Source: a virus
Lineage: Duplodnaviria > Caudoviricetes
Strand: one strand, 5' to 3'
Length of the DNA: 26,035 nucleotides
IMG/VR virus record: IMGVR_UViG_3300038316_000164
Location: 1-26,035 of that record
Under the pieces are notes generated by a model, which saw only the letters and a list, made by a program, of their open reading frames with translations, did no database searches and had not been told where the DNA came from. A program made the position numbers and the translations under genes. This document shows, piece by piece, positions 1 through 5,945 of this stretch (position 1 is its first letter; every line of letters begins with the position of its first letter).

Positions 1-32
1 ATTTTAATGGCTTTACGGCAAACATTTCATAT

Positions 33-76
33 TGGCGGGAGCATGTGGGAATCGAACCCACCTAACGTGGTATTAG
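33..76 (-). other. Prophage attachment site: duplicated 3' fragment of tRNA-Sec (selC), not a complete tRNA
   Basis: - strand reads CTAATACCACGTTAG-GTGGG-TTCGATT-CCCAC-ATGCTCCC-G-CCA: 5-bp T stem, 8-nt acceptor strand, G discriminator and CCA, the 8/5 geometry of bacterial tRNA-Sec. No matching 5' acceptor strand (GGGAGCAT), D arm or anticodon arm upstream. The right boundary is approximate. Confidence 0.85.
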
Positions 77-102
77 TTCGCTTTTAAACCTTATCAGCAA
101 TG

Positions 103-154
103 GACAAGCATAGTCAAAAGATAGTATTTTCAGCGGTTTTAAACCATGCTTGTC
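103..154. repeat. Inverted repeat near att (GACAAGCAT / ATGCTTGTC)
   Basis: Perfect 9-bp arms at 103-111 and 146-154, extendable imperfectly on both sides. Confidence 0.6.
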
Positions 155-190
155 TACATTTTTAATCAATAGTTATCATGCTAAATCAAT

Positions 191-214
191 TTTTTACACC
201 CATTTTTACACCCA
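191..214. repeat. Tandem 12-bp direct repeat, likely integrase arm-type binding sites
   Basis: TTTTTACACCCA at 191-202 and 203-214, about 120 bp inside the att core, where tyrosine-integrase arm sites typically lie. Confidence 0.65.
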
Positions 215-263
215 ATTTAGATTTTAGTTTCTTTTAAAAAAATGTATACTCTTACAAGATTTA

Positions 264-272
264 TGATAAAAT
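264..272 (+). promoter_or_regulatory. Extended -10 sigma-A-type promoter for the 292-453 ORF
   Basis: TG-A-TAAAAT at 264-272, directly upstream of RBS AAGGAGGG (278-285). Confidence 0.5.
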
Positions 273-291
273 AACATAAGGAGGGATTGCA

Positions 292-453
292 ATGAAATTT
301 ATAATTTTTTATGAAATAAATCATGGAGAATATCAATTAAGCATGGAAATTCAGGCAGATAAATTTGAAAAAATAGATAAAAGAACTATAAAAGTAAATG
401 GCGCATTAATAGAGCTTGAAGATGCCATTATTGTTGATATTAAAAAAATATAG
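292..453 (+). CDS. Small hypothetical protein, 53 aa (moron; not in ORF track)
   Basis: Manual translation MKFIIFYEINHGEYQLSMEIQADKFEKIDKRTIKVNGALIELEDAIIVDIKKI; strong RBS, own promoter and own terminator. Confidence 0.8.
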   Translation: MKFIIFYEINHGEYQLSMEIQADKFEKIDKRTIKVNGALIELEDAIIVDIKKI

Positions 454-457
454 TGAT

Positions 458-497
458 TAGCCCTCAAGGATTTCCCATGGAGGGCTATTTTATTTTG
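458..497 (+). terminator. Rho-independent terminator
   Basis: TAGCCCTC (458-465) / GAGGGCTA (480-487) stem followed by TTTTATTTT. Confidence 0.85.
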
Positions 498-557
498 CTC
501 TTATTCTACTGGCTTTTTAAAAAAACTTTAACATAGCTTTAAAAGTGGCAGGAAGCA

Positions 558-602
558 TACTAAATTAGATACTAAAAAAGGTACTAAATGCATTTAGTAC
601 CT
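558..602. repeat. Phased TACTAAA repeats and perfect 24-bp palindrome (candidate oriT/relaxosome site)
   Basis: TACTAAA at 558, 570 and 582 (12-bp period) plus an inverted copy at 593-599; AGGTACTAAATGCATTTAGTACCT (579-602) is a perfect palindrome. The function is inferred. Confidence 0.75.
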
Positions 603-661
603 GAACCACTCTTAAAGCATTGAGTTTACTGTATTTATCTAAGGCAAAATTCTTGTGATAC

Positions 662-1153
662 TTATAGTATTATATAGTGAACTCCGTTTATTTCTTCTTT
701 TCTTTTACCTTTACATACTACACAAAATTCGAATTCCACTCCCGTCCTCTTCAATGCTGCCATTACACCATTTATTTTTTCCTTGCTTGTTCTATTATAT
801 ATATCTATTTCTACTATTATTATTTTGTCCGTTTTTAATATTATTATGCAGTCTACAATAAATTTTTTAATTTTATATTCTCTCTGAATAAACTTAATAT
901 TATCTTTATATTTTATTATAAAGTCATTTAGGATTAATGAATGGTATGATGGCATTTTCTTAGTGTAATAAACTTTTTTACCCAGCACTGGATGAACTGC
1001 TGCTTTAAGAAATTTATTGTCTGAAAGTTTCTTAAGCCTAATACTGCAAGTTGTATAATTTGTAAAGAATAATTTATTTATTTGTTCTATAGTTGCACCC
1101 TTATTATCGGTTATCCAGTTTATTATTTCAGTATCTCTATCCGTTAAGTGCAT
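662..1153 (-). CDS. Replication-relaxation (Replic_Relax / MOBC-like) protein: winged helix plus PD-(D/E)xK-type nuclease
   Basis: N-terminal LTDRDxxII...TIEQI..LFF...RLKKL winged-helix pattern, an HxL motif, then VDCII...IVEID acidic motif; overlaps the end of the FtsK-like gene. Confidence 0.8.
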   Translation of the reverse strand: MHLTDRDTEIINWITDNKGATIEQINKLFFTNYTTCSIRLKKLSDNKFLKAAVHPVLGKKVYYTKKMPSYHSLILNDFIIKYKDNIKFIQREYKIKKFIVDCIIILKTDKIIIVEIDIYNRTSKEKINGVMAALKRTGVEFEFCVVCKGKRKEEINGVHYIIL

Positions 1154-2309
1154 TTAATATATCCATAATATCTTGCTTCACAGGCACAACTGGAGCAATA
1201 TCTTTTGATTTTTCTACTATTTTATCTTTAATGTTGGTCATAACTAAATTATGGTTCATGGTATAACTGTACCCTTGTTGCTCTCCTAATGTTCTACAAA
1301 TTAATTCTCTTTCTTGTAATTTAGTAGCATTGCCATTACCCAAAATAACTTGTGCTGCTGGTTCATCTGCTATTTTTAAACTTATCCTGGTGCACAACTG
1401 GGCTTTGATGTCTGAAGGTATACTATCAGAAGTAGGTTTTTGAAGTGCAGTAATGAGAAATACTCCTGATGATCTGCCTACATTTACTATGGTTTTGATG
1501 TGTTTTAAGCACTCTGCTTTTAACTTCTTTTCCGCTTTAGTATCTCCACGTGAAATATTAAGAAACGAAAATTCCTCTATAACAACATAAATATATTTAA
1601 GCTTACATTGAGCTTTTTTATTATAATCTTCTACACTATAATATCCTTTAGTATTATCTATTAGATTTTCTCTTTTTTTGCATTCCATATCTATATATTC
1701 CAGGCTCTCCAAAACTTCATCTAATGTTTTGCTATTTGTTTTTACCTGTATACAATTTGTAAATACTCCTAAATCATTTTTTCTTACTTGCAGCAAATGT
1801 ATTTCTACATTAGAGCAATACTTTATTAGATTAGTTAGAATTAATAATAAAATCCTACTTTTACCCGTCCCTGTATCCCCTCCAATAAGCATATGTGGAA
1901 ACTTATTCATGTCTATTATTATTGGACCGGTTAACCCTCCAGCGATAAGTAATTTATTTGGAGGTAACTTTATAGGTTCATATTCCTTAAAATTAAATTC
2001 TTTTATACAATACATATCTACTATATTATTTTCTGTTTTAAGTTGTATAGCTTTGTACCCCAAACCTTCTTTAAATACATCTAAATCCTTCTGCAATTGC
2101 TCAAATGTATAGCCATAAGGCAGCTCTATTTGTATTATGTGACCATAGCCTGTGCGTTGTATGGACCATATTTTTAATGTTTTATCTAATTTATTTGTAA
2201 ATTCATTTTTACTATAAGTTATTTGTTTCCACTTTCTTCTTATGTTTATTTTATCCCAATTGTTATAAGTATAAGCAATACAACCTAGGATTAGGGTTTC
2301 CACAATCAT
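1137..2309 (-). CDS. FtsK/SpoIIIE-family ATPase (coupling-protein-like DNA translocase)
   Basis: PHMLIGGDTGTGKS Walker A, YVVIEEF Walker B variant, GRSSGVFLITALQKP motif; short hydrophobic N-terminus; no obvious gamma domain. Confidence 0.92.
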   Translation of the reverse strand: MIVETLILGCIAYTYNNWDKINIRRKWKQITYSKNEFTNKLDKTLKIWSIQRTGYGHIIQIELPYGYTFEQLQKDLDVFKEGLGYKAIQLKTENNIVDMYCIKEFNFKEYEPIKLPPNKLLIAGGLTGPIIIDMNKFPHMLIGGDTGTGKSRILLLILTNLIKYCSNVEIHLLQVRKNDLGVFTNCIQVKTNSKTLDEVLESLEYIDMECKKRENLIDNTKGYYSVEDYNKKAQCKLKYIYVVIEEFSFLNISRGDTKAEKKLKAECLKHIKTIVNVGRSSGVFLITALQKPTSDSIPSDIKAQLCTRISLKIADEPAAQVILGNGNATKLQERELICRTLGEQQGYSYTMNHNLVMTNIKDKIVEKSKDIAPVVPVKQDIMDILNALNG

Positions 2310-2446
2310 TTTTTCACCTTCTTATTGGGTGAAACTGTTTCTGCTATAAATAATATAGCTGTTAAAAAAACAAATTGTTTAATAGGATCCGTAAAAAGGC
2401 TTTGTATAGATTTTATAAATAACTTATCTAACACAAATAGGTCCAT
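2306..2446 (-). CDS. Small hydrophobic/membrane peptide, 46 aa (not in ORF track)
   Basis: MDLFVLDKLFIKSIQSLFTDPIKQFVFLTAILFIAETVSPNKKVKK; RBS AGGAGA; its stop overlaps the FtsK start (ATGA coupling). Confidence 0.75.
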   Translation of the reverse strand: MDLFVLDKLFIKSIQSLFTDPIKQFVFLTAILFIAETVSPNKKVKK

Positions 2447-2588
2447 TATTTTCTTCTCCTTTTTCTAAGTGCTTAATATAAAGCTCTATTGCTTTTTTAA
2501 CGAATTCTGATTTTTCCTCCTGAATCATAACTGCATTATATAATTTCGTATCTCTCGTAGTTTTTTTAAAACTTACATCAACTTTCAT
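2424..2588 (-). CDS. Putative ribbon-helix-helix DNA-binding protein, 54 aa (not in ORF track)
   Basis: MKVDVSFKKTTRDTKLYNAVMIQEEKSEFVKKAIELYIKHLEKGEENNGPICVR: alternating beta strand, helix, then KSEFVKKAI helix typical of CopG/ParR-like RHH proteins; RBS GGGGTGG. Confidence 0.7.
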   Translation of the reverse strand: MKVDVSFKKTTRDTKLYNAVMIQEEKSEFVKKAIELYIKHLEKGEENNGPICVR

Positions 2589-2626
2589 TAAATCCACCCC
2601 ATTAATTCTTAATCTTTACTACTAAT

Positions 2627-2660
2627 ATATTCGTTGCTTATAATGATATTGCCTGTCCAC
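2627..2660 (-). promoter_or_regulatory. Candidate sporulation-sigma promoter (sigma-H-like, or sigma-E-like with a SpoIIID-like box) for the RHH-FtsK-relaxase operon
   Basis: ACAGGCAAT-N12-AACGAATAT versus B. subtilis sigma-H consensus RNAGGAWWW-N11/12-RNNGAATWW (1 mismatch); overlapping GGACAGGC resembles the SpoIIID box GGACAAGC. Confidence 0.45.
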
Positions 2661-2695
2661 TAGAATATATCTATTAATTAGCAGATATATTATTT

Positions 2696-2733
2696 AAAAA
2701 AATATGGCACTTATTTATCTAAGTACCATATTT
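2696..2733 (-). terminator. Terminator overlapping the end of the XRE gene
   Basis: - strand AAATATGGTACTTA-GATAAA-TAAGTGCCATATTT running into a T tract. Confidence 0.7.
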
Positions 2734-2913
2734 CCTCTATTTTCATATTCAATTTTTCAGCTATAATAAGTGCAGTTTCTAATGTTACTTGTTTATTATT
2801 GTTTTCAATTCTATTGTAATCTTTATTATTTATATTTAAAAGCTCAGCAAAGTCCTTTTGAAATTTATAGCCCATTTTTAATCGTATTTCTAAAAGCCTA
2901 TTTTTTACCCCAT
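2711..2913 (-). pseudogene. XRE/Cro-family helix-turn-helix regulator with an apparent 1-nt frameshift just after the start codon
   Basis: RBS GGAGGGGTG then ATG GGG TAA; the neighbouring frame reads GVKNRLLEIRLKMGYKFQKDFAELLNINNKDYNRIENNNKQVTLETALIIAEKLNMKIEEIWYLDK. The span is 203 nt and one extra G would restore a 67-aa protein. An in-frame ATG at 2875 gives a 54-aa truncated form. Confidence 0.75.
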
Positions 2914-2943
2914 GAACTCACCCCTCCACTTTTGTATATGTAA

Positions 2944-2972
2944 ATATTCTCCACATTTTATTATTTACCTTT
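2944..2972 (-). promoter_or_regulatory. Candidate sigma-H-like promoter for the XRE gene
   Basis: AAAGGTAAA-N11-GGAGAATAT (1 mismatch to RNAGGAWWW-N11/12-RNNGAATWW), about 15 nt upstream of the RBS. Confidence 0.5.
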
Positions 2973-3205
2973 TTTATTTTTAATTTTTTCTAAGAAATTT
3001 TAAAAGATTAATAAAAAGCAGGGCAAAAACTTTTAAAAATGTCCTTAAAAATATCTGAATTATGCTAACCATGCTTTAAATGCTCCTACAGGCTCACCAT
3101 GCGTTTTTACCCCATTTTAGATATAAATATCCTTTCGCATAGGAAAATGAAGAACATTTTTGAGCGGTAAGTATAAAATATGCAAGATTAAAACAATACA
3201 GTTTC

Positions 3206-3242
3206 AAAAAATAAAAAAAGACCTGGAGAAAAAACTCCAGGT
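3206..3242 (-). terminator. Terminator at the end of the lysis cassette
   Basis: ACCTGGAG (3221-3228) / CTCCAGGT (3235-3242) stem followed on the - strand by CTTTTTTTATTTTTT. Confidence 0.9.
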
Positions 3243-3547
3243 TAAGCATCATGAGCTATATCTTTAGTATTTTCTTTTAAATTGTTTATGCTACTAAGTA
3301 AATCATGTATAAAATTAGAACCTCTGCTAATTAATAATCCAGAAAGAATTATGCCTATATATGGTATCGAAAGAGGCTGTCCAACAATTCCAAACAAATC
3401 TATATTTGCTCCAAAACATAAAAGTTCACTGACTATCAATGAACCAATTCTATCAATTGATATTTTTCCATTAGGATAAAACATTTTGCAAGTTTCCCAA
3501 ACTGCCTCACAGATTATTGCTATTGTTAAAACTCCTAAAATATTCAT
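3242..3547 (-). CDS. Putative holin
   Basis: 101 aa with about three hydrophobic segments and a charged C-terminus; abuts the endolysin gene; RBS GGAGGT. Confidence 0.65.
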   Translation of the reverse strand: MNILGVLTIAIICEAVWETCKMFYPNGKISIDRIGSLIVSELLCFGANIDLFGIVGQPLSIPYIGIILSGLLISRGSNFIHDLLSSINNLKENTKDIAHDA

Positions 3548-4315
3548 TTACTTTACCTCCACTTTCTTTTTATTTCCAAAATAAAAATCATTCTCATTTT
3601 GACTTGTCATAATATGGCCATTAAAAGTTGTAACAAAGTTTGTTGGTGTAAGCATAAAACCTTCAAACCCATAAGGGCCTGTTTCCCTATTCCAGCTATA
3701 CTTTTTTCCATTAACTTCAAATAATTGTTCAACTTTTTGATTTTCTTTTGGATCTTGCCACTGCAAACCAAAATATTCAACTATAGCTCTGGATATACCT
3801 TTAGCATAATCTTCTTGAAATTCTTTTGATGTAACTTTTGGAGTATCTGATATAAAGTCTCCTTCTGTTATAATTGATGTCATTTTGGTGTTTCTTATCA
3901 TAAAAAAATAGTCATTATTTCTGTGACTATTCCATTTTTGTATTACACCACGATTATTAATGCCTGTATATTCTGCAATATAATTTGTTGCAAGTGTAGC
4001 CAATTTATAGCCAACATTCCCCGGCTTAGCAAATACAGAAGCATAAGCTTCTACTCCTGTAACACCGAGTAAATACATATTAATGTGTATAGATACACAT
4101 ATATCTGCATTTGATTTATTAACTAATGAAGTACGCGGCTCTGGATCTAAAGTTACATCATTAGTTCTTGTGTACAGCACTGTTATAGGATAAGGCTTTA
4201 AAAATTCTTCTACTTTTAAGCCTACAGCTAAGTTTATATTTTTTTCATATATATTTCCATTAACTGACCCCGGATCTGTCCCTCCATGCCCTGGATCTAA
4301 AACAACTTTAGGCAC
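3548..4315 (-). CDS. Endolysin, N-acetylmuramoyl-L-alanine amidase (Amidase_3)
   Basis: LDPGHGGTDPG, EK, SIHIN and TEGDF zinc/catalytic motifs. GTG at 4315 is preferred from RBS spacing (the ORF track starts at 4324). Confidence 0.93.
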   Translation of the reverse strand: MPKVVLDPGHGGTDPGSVNGNIYEKNINLAVGLKVEEFLKPYPITVLYTRTNDVTLDPEPRTSLVNKSNADICVSIHINMYLLGVTGVEAYASVFAKPGNVGYKLATLATNYIAEYTGINNRGVIQKWNSHRNNDYFFMIRNTKMTSIITEGDFISDTPKVTSKEFQEDYAKGISRAIVEYFGLQWQDPKENQKVEQLFEVNGKKYSWNRETGPYGFEGFMLTPTNFVTTFNGHIMTSQNENDFYFGNKKKVEVK

Positions 4316-4320
4316 ATTTA

Positions 4321-4617
4321 TCACTCCCTTTCAATATTTTCAAGCCTATCTATCCTTTTATGTGCTTGTTTACTACTTTCCTCAACTTTTGTTACTCTTT
4401 CAGCGAGTGCATAGTGCCTTGTCTCCGCTGATTCCTGCTTTCTTTTCAAATCGTCAATGCCAGCTTTAATATATCCTATGTCACTCATCAGGGCACCGCT
4501 GCTTTTGCCACTTTCAGTACTCTCTTTTTGAAGTCCCTTTCTGTAGCCAATATAACCAAATATAATGCTGCATATCGTTCCAACAACTCCAACATAAGCT
4601 ATAAGGTTTTTATCCAT
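4321..4617 (-). CDS. XhlA-like / holin-associated membrane protein
   Basis: Single N-terminal TM helix plus coiled-coil C-terminus (ERVTKVEESSKQAHKRIDRLE); ATG at 4617 with RBS AGGAGGTG; first gene of the lysis cassette. Confidence 0.75.
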   Translation of the reverse strand: MDKNLIAYVGVVGTICSIIFGYIGYRKGLQKESTESGKSSGALMSDIGYIKAGIDDLKRKQESAETRHYALAERVTKVEESSKQAHKRIDRLENIERE

Positions 4618-4721
4618 TTTACACCTCCTATTTTGCCTCTGTTGGTACATTTATGTTCCCACTTTAAACGCCCATAGAGCGTTTAAAATTAATGCTTTAG
4701 GCCTATTACATATCCTGAAAA

Positions 4722-4764
4722 GGCAAAGAAAAAAGACCATTCACTTATGGTCCCTTGCTTTGCC
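4722..4764 (-). terminator. Terminator after the tail/adhesin genes
   Basis: - strand GACCAT-AAGTGA-ATGGTC then TTTTTTCTTT, with outer GGCAAAG/CTTTGCC pairing. Confidence 0.7.
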
Positions 4765-4808
4765 ATTAGATTGCTTTTTCTATTTGTACATAGTTCATAT
4801 TTTACCTC

Positions 4809-5945
4809 CTATTCATACCATTTACCAAAGAACTTAATAGATGAATTTTTACTATCTTTAAATATAATTAAAGGACTTTCAAAATCACTATAATCACAGA
4901 TAGATGATAATTCACCACTTGAATATGTGTAATAAATTTTAAATTCAGTATCTCCATAAGATTTTTTAAATATATATAAAGGGTTATTTACAACAGAATA
5001 ATCAGTAAAACTTACAAAAACATCACCATTGTTATTTGTAATAATAGATGGGTTCTCAGTTCTGTCATTAGCATTATAAATAAGTAACTCCTTACTCCAC
5101 GTAACACCACCATCAACTGAATAAATATATCTTACTCTATTTTCATTTAAGACATTATCTACTCCATGCCATACTATGTGAATTATTCCATCTTTATCTA
5201 CACATGCTGATGGTGAGAATTGTTCTCCATATCCATTATATATACTTTTTACAGACCAAGTACTATTCATTTTGCTAAAAAAATATATAATAAAAAAACA
5301 CTTACAAATTATTACAGGCATATCATTATTTATAATAATGGCTGGATCTATATAATTAAAATAGTCGTCACCGTTTGTACTTACTTGTTCCACATTTCCC
5401 CAAGTAACGCTGCCATCTGCATTTATAGTTCCCTTGCAATATCTAATATTAAAACCGTTTGGGTAAGTTGAGTTTTTACTACTCCAACAAGCGTGGAGTT
5501 CTGTCCCTGCTGAATTAATTGCAAGGGAACAATTATCTATAGCTGTTTGTAAATCTAAAACAATTTTTGGAGATACTATAACTCCATTGGAATTATAAGT
5601 AATGAATTCTTGTGTATCATTATCTATGCCAAATAACACACCTATATTATTCCCCATTGCAACTAAAGATAAGCTATTAAAATTAGTTTTATAACCAGTA
5701 TCTGTTACAAATAAATCCCATGTGTTTCCATTATCAGTACTTTTGTATAATCTATAACCTCTATTTGGAATATCTATTATACCTGCAACCAATAATCCAT
5801 TATTTAATTTAATTAATTTTCTACCACCATTACCACTTATATCATAATCACTATTTACAACTGTTACAGGAGTAGTCCTGTCAATTAAAGTTTTGCTATC
5901 CTTTTTTTTGATGGCTGCCATAAGTAATCTAAATGCTGTATTCAA
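4809..5945 (-). CDS. BNR/Asp-box beta-propeller (sialidase-like fold) protein, probable receptor-binding subunit
   Basis: Asp-box motifs KSTDNGNTW and YSVDGGVTW, repeated beta-blade pattern; TTG start with RBS GAGGTG; last tail gene. Confidence 0.7.
   Translation of the reverse strand: MNTAFRLLMAAIKKKDSKTLIDRTTPVTVVNSDYDISGNGGRKLIKLNNGLLVAGIIDIPNRGYRLYKSTDNGNTWDLFVTDTGYKTNFNSLSLVAMGNNIGVLFGIDNDTQEFITYNSNGVIVSPKIVLDLQTAIDNCSLAINSAGTELHACWSSKNSTYPNGFNIRYCKGTINADGSVTWGNVEQVSTNGDDYFNYIDPAIIINNDMPVIICKCFFIIYFFSKMNSTWSVKSIYNGYGEQFSPSACVDKDGIIHIVWHGVDNVLNENRVRYIYSVDGGVTWSKELLIYNANDRTENPSIITNNNGDVFVSFTDYSVVNNPLYIFKKSYGDTEFKIYYTYSSGELSSICDYSDFESPLIIFKDSKNSSIKFFGKWYE

Follow-up and report, generated by a model that had tools for sequence, protein, structure and literature searches.

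The DNA considered here, called the window throughout, is a stretch of 26,035 nucleotides that spans positions 1 to 26,035 of the IMG/VR virus record IMGVR_UViG_3300038316_000164 (Duplodnaviria; Caudoviricetes). The record is a single 26-kb virus entry, and a family scan of the open reading frames (ORFs) of the window finds genes for terminase, portal, capsid, tail, lysis and primase-helicase. The window comes from a Clostridium phage, of whose genome the contig covers only part, and the named homologues of its proteins belong to Clostridium and Caloramator. Downstream of the lysis terminator (3221-3242), four ORFs on the minus strand, at 662-1153 (163 amino acids, aa), 1137-2309 (390 aa), 2306-2446 (46 aa) and 2424-2588/2597 (54-57 aa), overlap successively by 17, 4 and 23 bp; the coordinates, strand and overlaps bear out an earlier note, made from the letters alone, that had described four overlapping genes at this place. 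All four ORFs are intact, with full catalytic motifs. In the order of transcription they encode a putative ribbon-helix-helix (RHH) protein, a predicted membrane peptide, an FtsK/TcpA-type ATPase and a predicted winged-helix nuclease, and this cassette is flanked by an XRE-type regulator gene upstream and by a structured site downstream.

Cassettes of this type are already known, and the idea that they mobilise or translocate DNA is not new. Pathria et al. (2012) described a 'DNA translocation operon' in Bacillus phage 0305phi8-36, with versions in SPO1, GBSV1 and Gamma, which consists of a MOBC-related relaxase, a coupling ATPase and membrane genes, and whose deletion in one phage gave, in that account, no laboratory phenotype and no plaque defect (PMC3357382). 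Two Bacillus pumilus phages carry FtsK, Replic_Relax, VirB2-like and RHH genes (PMC9658697), and an annotated ATPase-nuclease pair is present in c-st, LPCPA58, 276BB001, PfEFR-4, Leo2 and PM1, and not in the annotated records of SP-15, Atlee and Grass. No experimental function for the cassette was found in the literature searched, which included few subscription papers. The window resembles the 2012 operon in that a MOBC-related helix-turn-helix (HTH) nuclease with a relaxase-like fold adjoins a coupling-type ATPase of family PF01580 (17-bp overlap, 20/20 loci) and membrane genes, in a phage of spore-formers and with no full conjugation system; the 46-aa peptide is the candidate for the separate membrane anchor. 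It differs in belonging to a Clostridium clade, in its FtsK/TcpA-type motor, in having the 46-aa peptide instead of VirB6/MreB partners, and in a nuclease that lacks the conserved Tyr, while a conserved promoter and a cis site are absent from the 2012 description as far as it was available (PMC3357382). What is added here is the predicted conserved promoter, a SpoIIIAC-family gene in the cassettes of relatives, and a candidate downstream site of fixed geometry.

The ATPase (1137-2309, minus strand) lacks a gamma domain, for which the family scan gave no match, and scores 33.7 bits against PF01580 (cut-off 24), in agreement with its earlier description as FtsK-like; it also matches phrog_1358 (E 3.4e-73). 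Its best match in the Protein Data Bank (PDB) is the 'DNA translocase coupling protein' of 6O1W-6O1Z (E 4e-24), which we take to be TcpA, a review listing a near-identical code, and FtsK is matched at 8e-15. Walker A, Walker B, the sensor Gln and the Arg finger are kept in 65 sequences, among which G144, G149, K150, E246, Q290 and R308 are invariant and Walker B reads EE in 61. By sequence, the ATPase is closer to the coupling protein (taken as TcpA) than to chromosomal FtsK. It is like TcpA of the C. perfringens plasmid pCW3 and the TcpA-relaxase integrative mobilisable elements (IMEs) in this best solved match and in the position of its gene directly upstream of a relaxase-type gene, but unlike them it is found without genes of a type IV secretion system (T4SS), has a weak N-terminal anchor (the N-terminus is weakly hydrophobic), resides inside a virion-encoding phage, and has a partner of MOBC type rather than a MOBT or MOBM relaxase. 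No link of the ATPase to a T4SS of the mating-pair formation type was seen, and no mating-pair or VirB4 family was found among the 31 window ORFs of this partial contig, just as the earlier note had stated. No homologue of the nuclease adjoins the FtsK-like matches seen in a mycobacteriophage, a cyanophage and two Listeria/Staphylococcus records that are unverified.

The 163-aa product of 662-1153 (minus strand) is a predicted nuclease with a winged helix and a PD-(D/E)XK domain, modelled with high confidence (AF2 pLDDT 94). The model matches NucS, Bax1 and MarR-type structures in the PDB and, over its whole length, proteins of Bacillus phages JL and G (TM 0.62); the nuclease profile has no match among PDB sequences, and tblastn gave none in the phage collection. 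The fold that the earlier note had assigned is therefore upheld, but the name Replic_Relax does not follow from the window protein itself, which reaches 13.5 bits against PF13814, below the gathering cut-off of 25.3. Twelve of 41 close homologues match this family weakly (best E 4e-4); the nuclease profile gathers 308 cluster representatives, of which 11 of the 42 distant ones scanned pass PF13814, and, when widened, it matches the annotated replication-relaxation proteins of PfEFR-4, PM1, 276BB001 and Leo2. It is through these homologues, and on sequence grounds, that the nuclease is linked to Replic_Relax/MOBC. With the MOBC relaxases TraX (pAD1) and MobC (CloDF13) and with Replic_Relax it has the HTH plus PD-(D/E)XK architecture in common, as well as a D101/E115/D117/K126 pattern, and H71, D101 and E115 are invariant in 75 sequences. 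Apart from its score, it departs from that family at the position of the conserved Tyr, which is Tyr in 49/75 sequences of the wider family, Ile in the window, and I/V/L in 41/41 close homologues; its nuclease activity is a prediction. A conserved Lys-Tyr follows the E-x-D/E motif in this family, and the role presumed for it is the one in TraX. A natural single-protein fusion of an FtsK domain and a nuclease domain (P0297, 650 aa) is consistent with joint working of the two.

The comparison was based on 20 loci with a near-complete nuclease (L001-L020, of which L002 and L013 are one contig). The FtsK gene lies upstream of the nuclease gene in 20/20, so the gene order is kept among homologues as had been anticipated, and the RHH-like and XRE genes were matched in 15/20 and 12/20, respectively. 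In one locus (L004:3058-4014) an insertion with an ORF of 318 aa, which may be a homing endonuclease or intron, interrupts the ATPase gene. A YdjM-type inner-membrane gene, absent from the window, is often found 3' of the downstream site (L003:5637-6038, L005, L006, L009-L011, L014, L017, L021; PF04307 checked in L003 only), and in c-st (L027:1932-3272) the cassette adjoins an FtsZ-like partition gene and a regulator. Six further loci (L021-L026) are chromosomal remnants that hold only the 3' half of the nuclease gene and the downstream site, with left ends all at 239-297 nt into the nuclease gene; the remnant in L024 is near selenocysteine genes. The idea that these remnants are transfer products was dropped, because in L021 and L025 an XRE-like start is fused to mid-nuclease, so that they look like internal deletions.

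An ATPase-nuclease pair could also be carried as a moron that acts in anti-phage defence or abortive infection, and its position between the lysis genes and the attachment site, the matches of the ATPase domain to the PADLOC models SspH, mad8 and HerA, and the PD-(D/E)XK fold of the nuclease would suit such a role. However, the nuclease has no PADLOC nuclease match and only a weak N-terminal match to CARF3. The genes are also accompanied by a dedicated cis site, the cassette is retained in lytic phages, and in the six chromosomal remnants neither the ATPase nor the front half of the nuclease is left. We consider defence very improbable.

The alignment of 20 upstream regions indicates a predicted promoter of sigma-E/sigma-K type for the cassette (2624-2652, minus strand). 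The pattern AA(C/T)-N16-CATA-N3-T occurs upstream of the RHH-like gene in 16/20 regions, as against 1.35% in shuffles, and sigma-A promoters are not enriched in the 20 regions (9/20 versus 42%). The mother-cell consensus of C. difficile consists of a -10 box CATATTAT/CATATAAT and a -35 box ATA or AC at a spacing of 16-18 bp (PMC3789822), and the clade motif fits this consensus (-35 ATA or AC, 16-18 bp, -10 CATA-n3-T) in 16/20 regions. In most relatives the -10 box is CATA(T/C)ATT, and in the window it is AATATATT, an A-variant (A for the first C) with a 15-bp ATA spacing; A-variant -10 boxes precede the mapped starts of C. difficile spoIVA and spoIIIAA (PMC7438776). The window promoter has a leave-one-out score of 10.3, the top score among 29 window upstream regions. 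The promoter matrix recovers the motif in 7/7 near-clade loci outside the training set, four of which were already in the alignment in which it was first recognised. It also recovers the motif in C. perfringens phage LPCPA58, with a weak match in Leo2. The conserved promoter of the cassette is therefore predicted to be sporulation-specific and of mother-cell type; no consensus Spo0A box is present near the cassette.

This prediction bears on the proposal, made in PMC3357382, that such genes spread phage DNA autonomously from cell to cell across vegetative septa in chains or biofilms, as Streptomyces TraB/Spd do. TraB works without a T4SS, and in Bacillus phages the ATPase is flanked by membrane genes that are VirB2-like (a weak match, below cut-off) or annotated as TrbL; the promoter, however, is not sigma-A-like, and no wall hydrolase or channel gene lies within the window cassette, and vegetative spread appears improbable to us.

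A further link to sporulation is provided by a SpoIIIAC-family gene inside the cassettes of relatives, where 4/4 genes tested pass PF06686 (38-40 bits, cut-off 24) and a SpoIIIAC-type profile detects the gene in 13/22 metagenome loci. The spoIIIAC gene of the host is controlled by sigma-E, according to a literature passage. The SpoIIIAC-like gene has no match in the phage collection, and its homology to the membrane genes of Bacillus phages is not claimed, because the profile gave no match to them. Phage records with a relaxase-like gene have spore-forming hosts in 103/105 and 23/26 cases, a tally that is biased because the phage-collection queries were Bacillus proteins. The lytic phages 0305phi8-36 and SPO1 are among the carriers of this cassette type (PMC3357382). 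The FtsK-family motor, the SpoIIIAC-family subunit of relatives and the predicted mother-cell-type promoter recall the host SpoIIIE and SpoIIIA-SpoIIQ channel and virospore formation, from which the cassette differs in lacking a gamma domain and in having a separate nuclease and a cis site.

Genes of this kind have also been read as relics of plasmid-prophages (PMC9658697), and they may serve in plasmid-prophage maintenance, with the nuclease initiating or resolving replication and the motor and RHH/ParM partitioning copies at division or at the polar septum. Such a role would agree with the actin-like ParM genes found upstream in L002, L005 and L006, with the ParA gene downstream in L007, and with the presence of the cassette on 45-59 kb Clostridium plasmids. 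Nevertheless, this phage encodes a primase-helicase and an integrase of its own, the cassette is also found in lytic phages, and, by what is established for sporulation, sigma-E/K timing would fall after polar septation; we regard maintenance as quite unlikely.

The structured site announced by the earlier note downstream of the nuclease gene is indeed present, but it reaches to about 670 rather than 660 and overlaps with the stop codon of the nuclease gene. Most near-clade loci have, 3' of the nuclease stop, a palindrome, a AAATCAAT box and a hairpin with a T-run. In the window, a short palindrome at the nuclease stop codon (655-670), a candidate cut site, is kept in the family whether inside or outside the ORF; an IHF-like box (612-627, minus strand), a candidate DNA-bending site, has one mismatch; repeats with a 12-bp period (555-564, 567-576 and 579-588, with an inverted copy at 593-602, minus strand) are candidate protein-binding sequences; and a terminator scan and covariation locate a hairpin with a T-run, resembling an intrinsic terminator, at 579-602 within 555-602 (minus strand). 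The T-run is 82-84 nt from the palindrome in 19/20 loci measured, and the repeats are 67-105 bp from it. Measured against the IHF consensus, the box is exact in 9/17 and has at most one mismatch in 13/17 dereplicated loci (shuffles 0.2% and 4%). The hairpin has compensatory changes in 6/9 pairs, with 93.8% of cells paired, although related sequences can inflate covariation. The site model is found directly 3' of the nuclease in 11/17 ATPase-found loci with enough flank, at least four of these being training loci found again. For the MOBC relaxase TraX, the direct repeats that it binds are 70-120 bp away from its nick, and no covalent intermediate is detectable (PMC12857230); the geometry of the present site, with 67-105 bp between candidate repeats and a predicted nick site at the palindrome, fits an origin of transfer (oriT) of MOBC type. 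By this analogy, the downstream site is likely an oriT whose hairpin doubles as the terminator of the operon. The site was also considered as a small RNA, but this reading was rejected for want of a conserved promoter upstream of the site. A loose DNA pattern scan of viral contigs gave at least 120 hits and was uninformative. In one RNA run, a 256-nt contig covers 484-739 at a depth of 2.9, which is too weak and may be DNA.

The same features have two other possible explanations. We give only a slight chance to the first, in which the site amounts to no more than a terminator, together with inherited sequence or a former recombination arm, and the window cassette is decaying; the hairpin with its invariant T-run and covariation, the frameshift in the XRE gene, and an attP arm that likewise has 12-bp repeats beside an IHF-like box would all be expected from it, but the palindrome (0.77) and the box (0.80) are better conserved in the 17 dereplicated loci than the spacers (0.61), with fixed spacing, and the four ORFs and their catalytic motifs remain intact. 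In the second, the cassette is a mobilisation module, in which a relaxase, its own coupling protein, an RHH accessory protein and an oriT allow the phage genome to pass through the mating channel that a conjugative plasmid or integrative and conjugative element in the same cell provides. The best solved relative of the ATPase is a clostridial coupling protein, CloDF13 encodes a MOBC relaxase together with its own coupling protein, the downstream site resembles an oriT, and streptococcal IMEs typically have the order tcpA-then-relaxase and no T4SS (PMC5357655). In the same account, however, as far as available, these IMEs pair MOBC with VirD4 and never with TcpA (PMC5357655); mobilisation also leaves the predicted mother-cell-type promoter and the SpoIIIAC gene unexplained, and phages of non-sporulating Bacillota hardly ever carry the pair in the phage-record tallies, which were obtained with Bacillus queries. 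Mobilisation is the strongest competitor of the reading that we favour, although it seems unlikely to us.

The reading that we favour, to which we give a little under an even chance and whose functional steps we infer throughout, is that the cassette transfers phage DNA from the mother cell to the forespore during sporulation. RNA polymerase with sigma-E or sigma-K would transcribe the RHH, peptide, ATPase and nuclease genes. The winged helix of the nuclease would bind the 12-bp repeats (555-602), a host bending protein would act at 612-627, and the PD-(D/E)XK domain would cut near the palindrome at 655-670, probably with no tyrosine becoming linked to the DNA. Anchored in the membrane through the 46-aa peptide and its own short hydrophobic N-terminus, the ATPase would drive the free phage genome across the membranes between mother cell and forespore, with help from the SpoIIIAC-like subunit in some relatives. 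The copies rescued would be those of excised, plasmid-form or newly infecting phage, which are otherwise lost at mother-cell lysis. The dispensability of the 2012 operon in vegetative plaque assays (PMC3357382) fits a role confined to sporulation, and the absence of mating-pair genes among the 31 ORFs counts for transfer into the spore. Of the three roles that the earlier note had offered, passage through the sporulation septum thus gains specific support from the promoter type and from the SpoIIIAC-family gene of relatives, and defence gains little.

Several points weigh against transfer into the forespore. The window cassette itself has no SpoIIIAC gene, its XRE gene is frameshifted, and one base of its -10 box differs from the clade consensus. 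Recognition of the motifs came after the alignment of sequences that are related, and the promoter could also be read by a sigma factor that the phage encodes. The promoter motif had no match in 8 distant Clostridium loci, nor in 8/10 regions from nine other phages, where the regions may miss the operon start, and the site model had no match in the six Clostridium loci that are more distant, in seven distant GTDB loci, or in nine phage records, among them every Bacillus phage tested. The host tally carries the query bias mentioned above, and spoIIIAA is present in 7/7 cassette genomes versus 322/400 of a GTDB sample, an underpowered comparison (Fisher p 0.22). The ATPase gene of Bacillus phage Fah is classed as a 'delayed' lytic gene (PMC4113786). 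In addition, an integrase is encoded by this phage, and a copy integrated in the chromosome would enter the spore along with it, not needing the cassette.

The smaller genes were identified with differing firmness. The XRE/HTH_3 regulator gene (2711-2913, minus strand) matches PF01381 (29.6 bits), in keeping with the XRE gene placed upstream by the earlier note, but frame analysis shows its reading frame to be broken just past the start codon: at 2913, an ATG with a ribosome-binding site leads directly into GGG TAA and is out of frame, and the open part (2711-2875) lacks the first helix. The same letters occur in contigs from three runs of three studies, one run possibly being the window's own source, and the gene looks broken in this copy. 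The out-of-frame start lies in a short G-run (2908-2913), and either a fixed pseudogene or a slippage switch is possible; a 14-bp inverted repeat is present at the 3' end of the gene (2700-2733). The 54-aa putative RHH DNA-binding protein (2424-2588, minus strand) matches phrog_18533, of unknown function (E 2.6e-18), and has a conserved VxVSF followed by two predicted helices (monomer model pLDDT 68); its ESM Atlas neighbours include RHH families, with scores up to 0.81. It stands as a conserved small ORF, but its RHH identity, given as a fact in the earlier note, is a lead drawn from this pattern, as no match to the RHH fold was found in Pfam, PDB, Foldseek or HMM searches. The 46-aa product of 2306-2446 (minus strand) is likewise predicted from its pattern to be a single-pass membrane peptide with a basic tail; its hydropathy maximum is borderline (1.58), positional homologues in 15 loci conserve the pattern, and family scans gave no match.

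At the left end of the window, an attachment-site core (31-76, minus strand) matches the 3' end of tRNA-Sec, the tRNA that adjoins the selenocysteine genes in L024, and contigs bearing the tRNA part from the window sequence at position 76. Arm-type 12-bp repeats are present at 191-214, and attP has arm repeats on both sides (window 31-76 and 191-214; L001:5940-6240). L001, a locus identical to the window, extends further and there encodes a repressor and a tyrosine integrase that has an arm-binding domain. From this continuation and the tRNA-Sec 3' end, the window belongs to a temperate siphophage. Upstream of the cassette (3064-3130), short repeats are also present whose sequence resembles that of the att arm. 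Between the downstream site and att, opposite the cassette, a 53-aa ORF (292-453, plus strand) has its own ribosome-binding site and hairpin, and its only family match is a weak one to phrog_32163. Rfam gave nothing at gathering level for window positions 1-5000, and ARAGORN found no full tRNA in the window.

The entry of phage genomes into endospores is a standing question, and the phage FtsK-relaxase pair is annotated in more than 100 Bacillus phage records with no demonstrated function. We offer a wider proposal with more hesitation than the transfer reading itself, judging it possible but rather more apt to fail than to hold: phages of spore-formers may carry a minimal, self-encoded machine for 'conjugation into the spore', made up of a mother-cell-timed relaxase, a coupling motor, a membrane subunit that is sometimes a captured SpoIIIAC, and an oriT of its own. 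The predicted promoter, the SpoIIIAC-family subunit and the candidate cis site specify when, where and on which sequence the cassette should act, which makes the hypothesis testable. If true, 'conjugation into the spore' would be an active, phage-encoded route to virospores that is common to temperate and lytic phages. It would represent a new route of phage persistence through dormancy, and possibly a tool for the delivery of DNA into spores.

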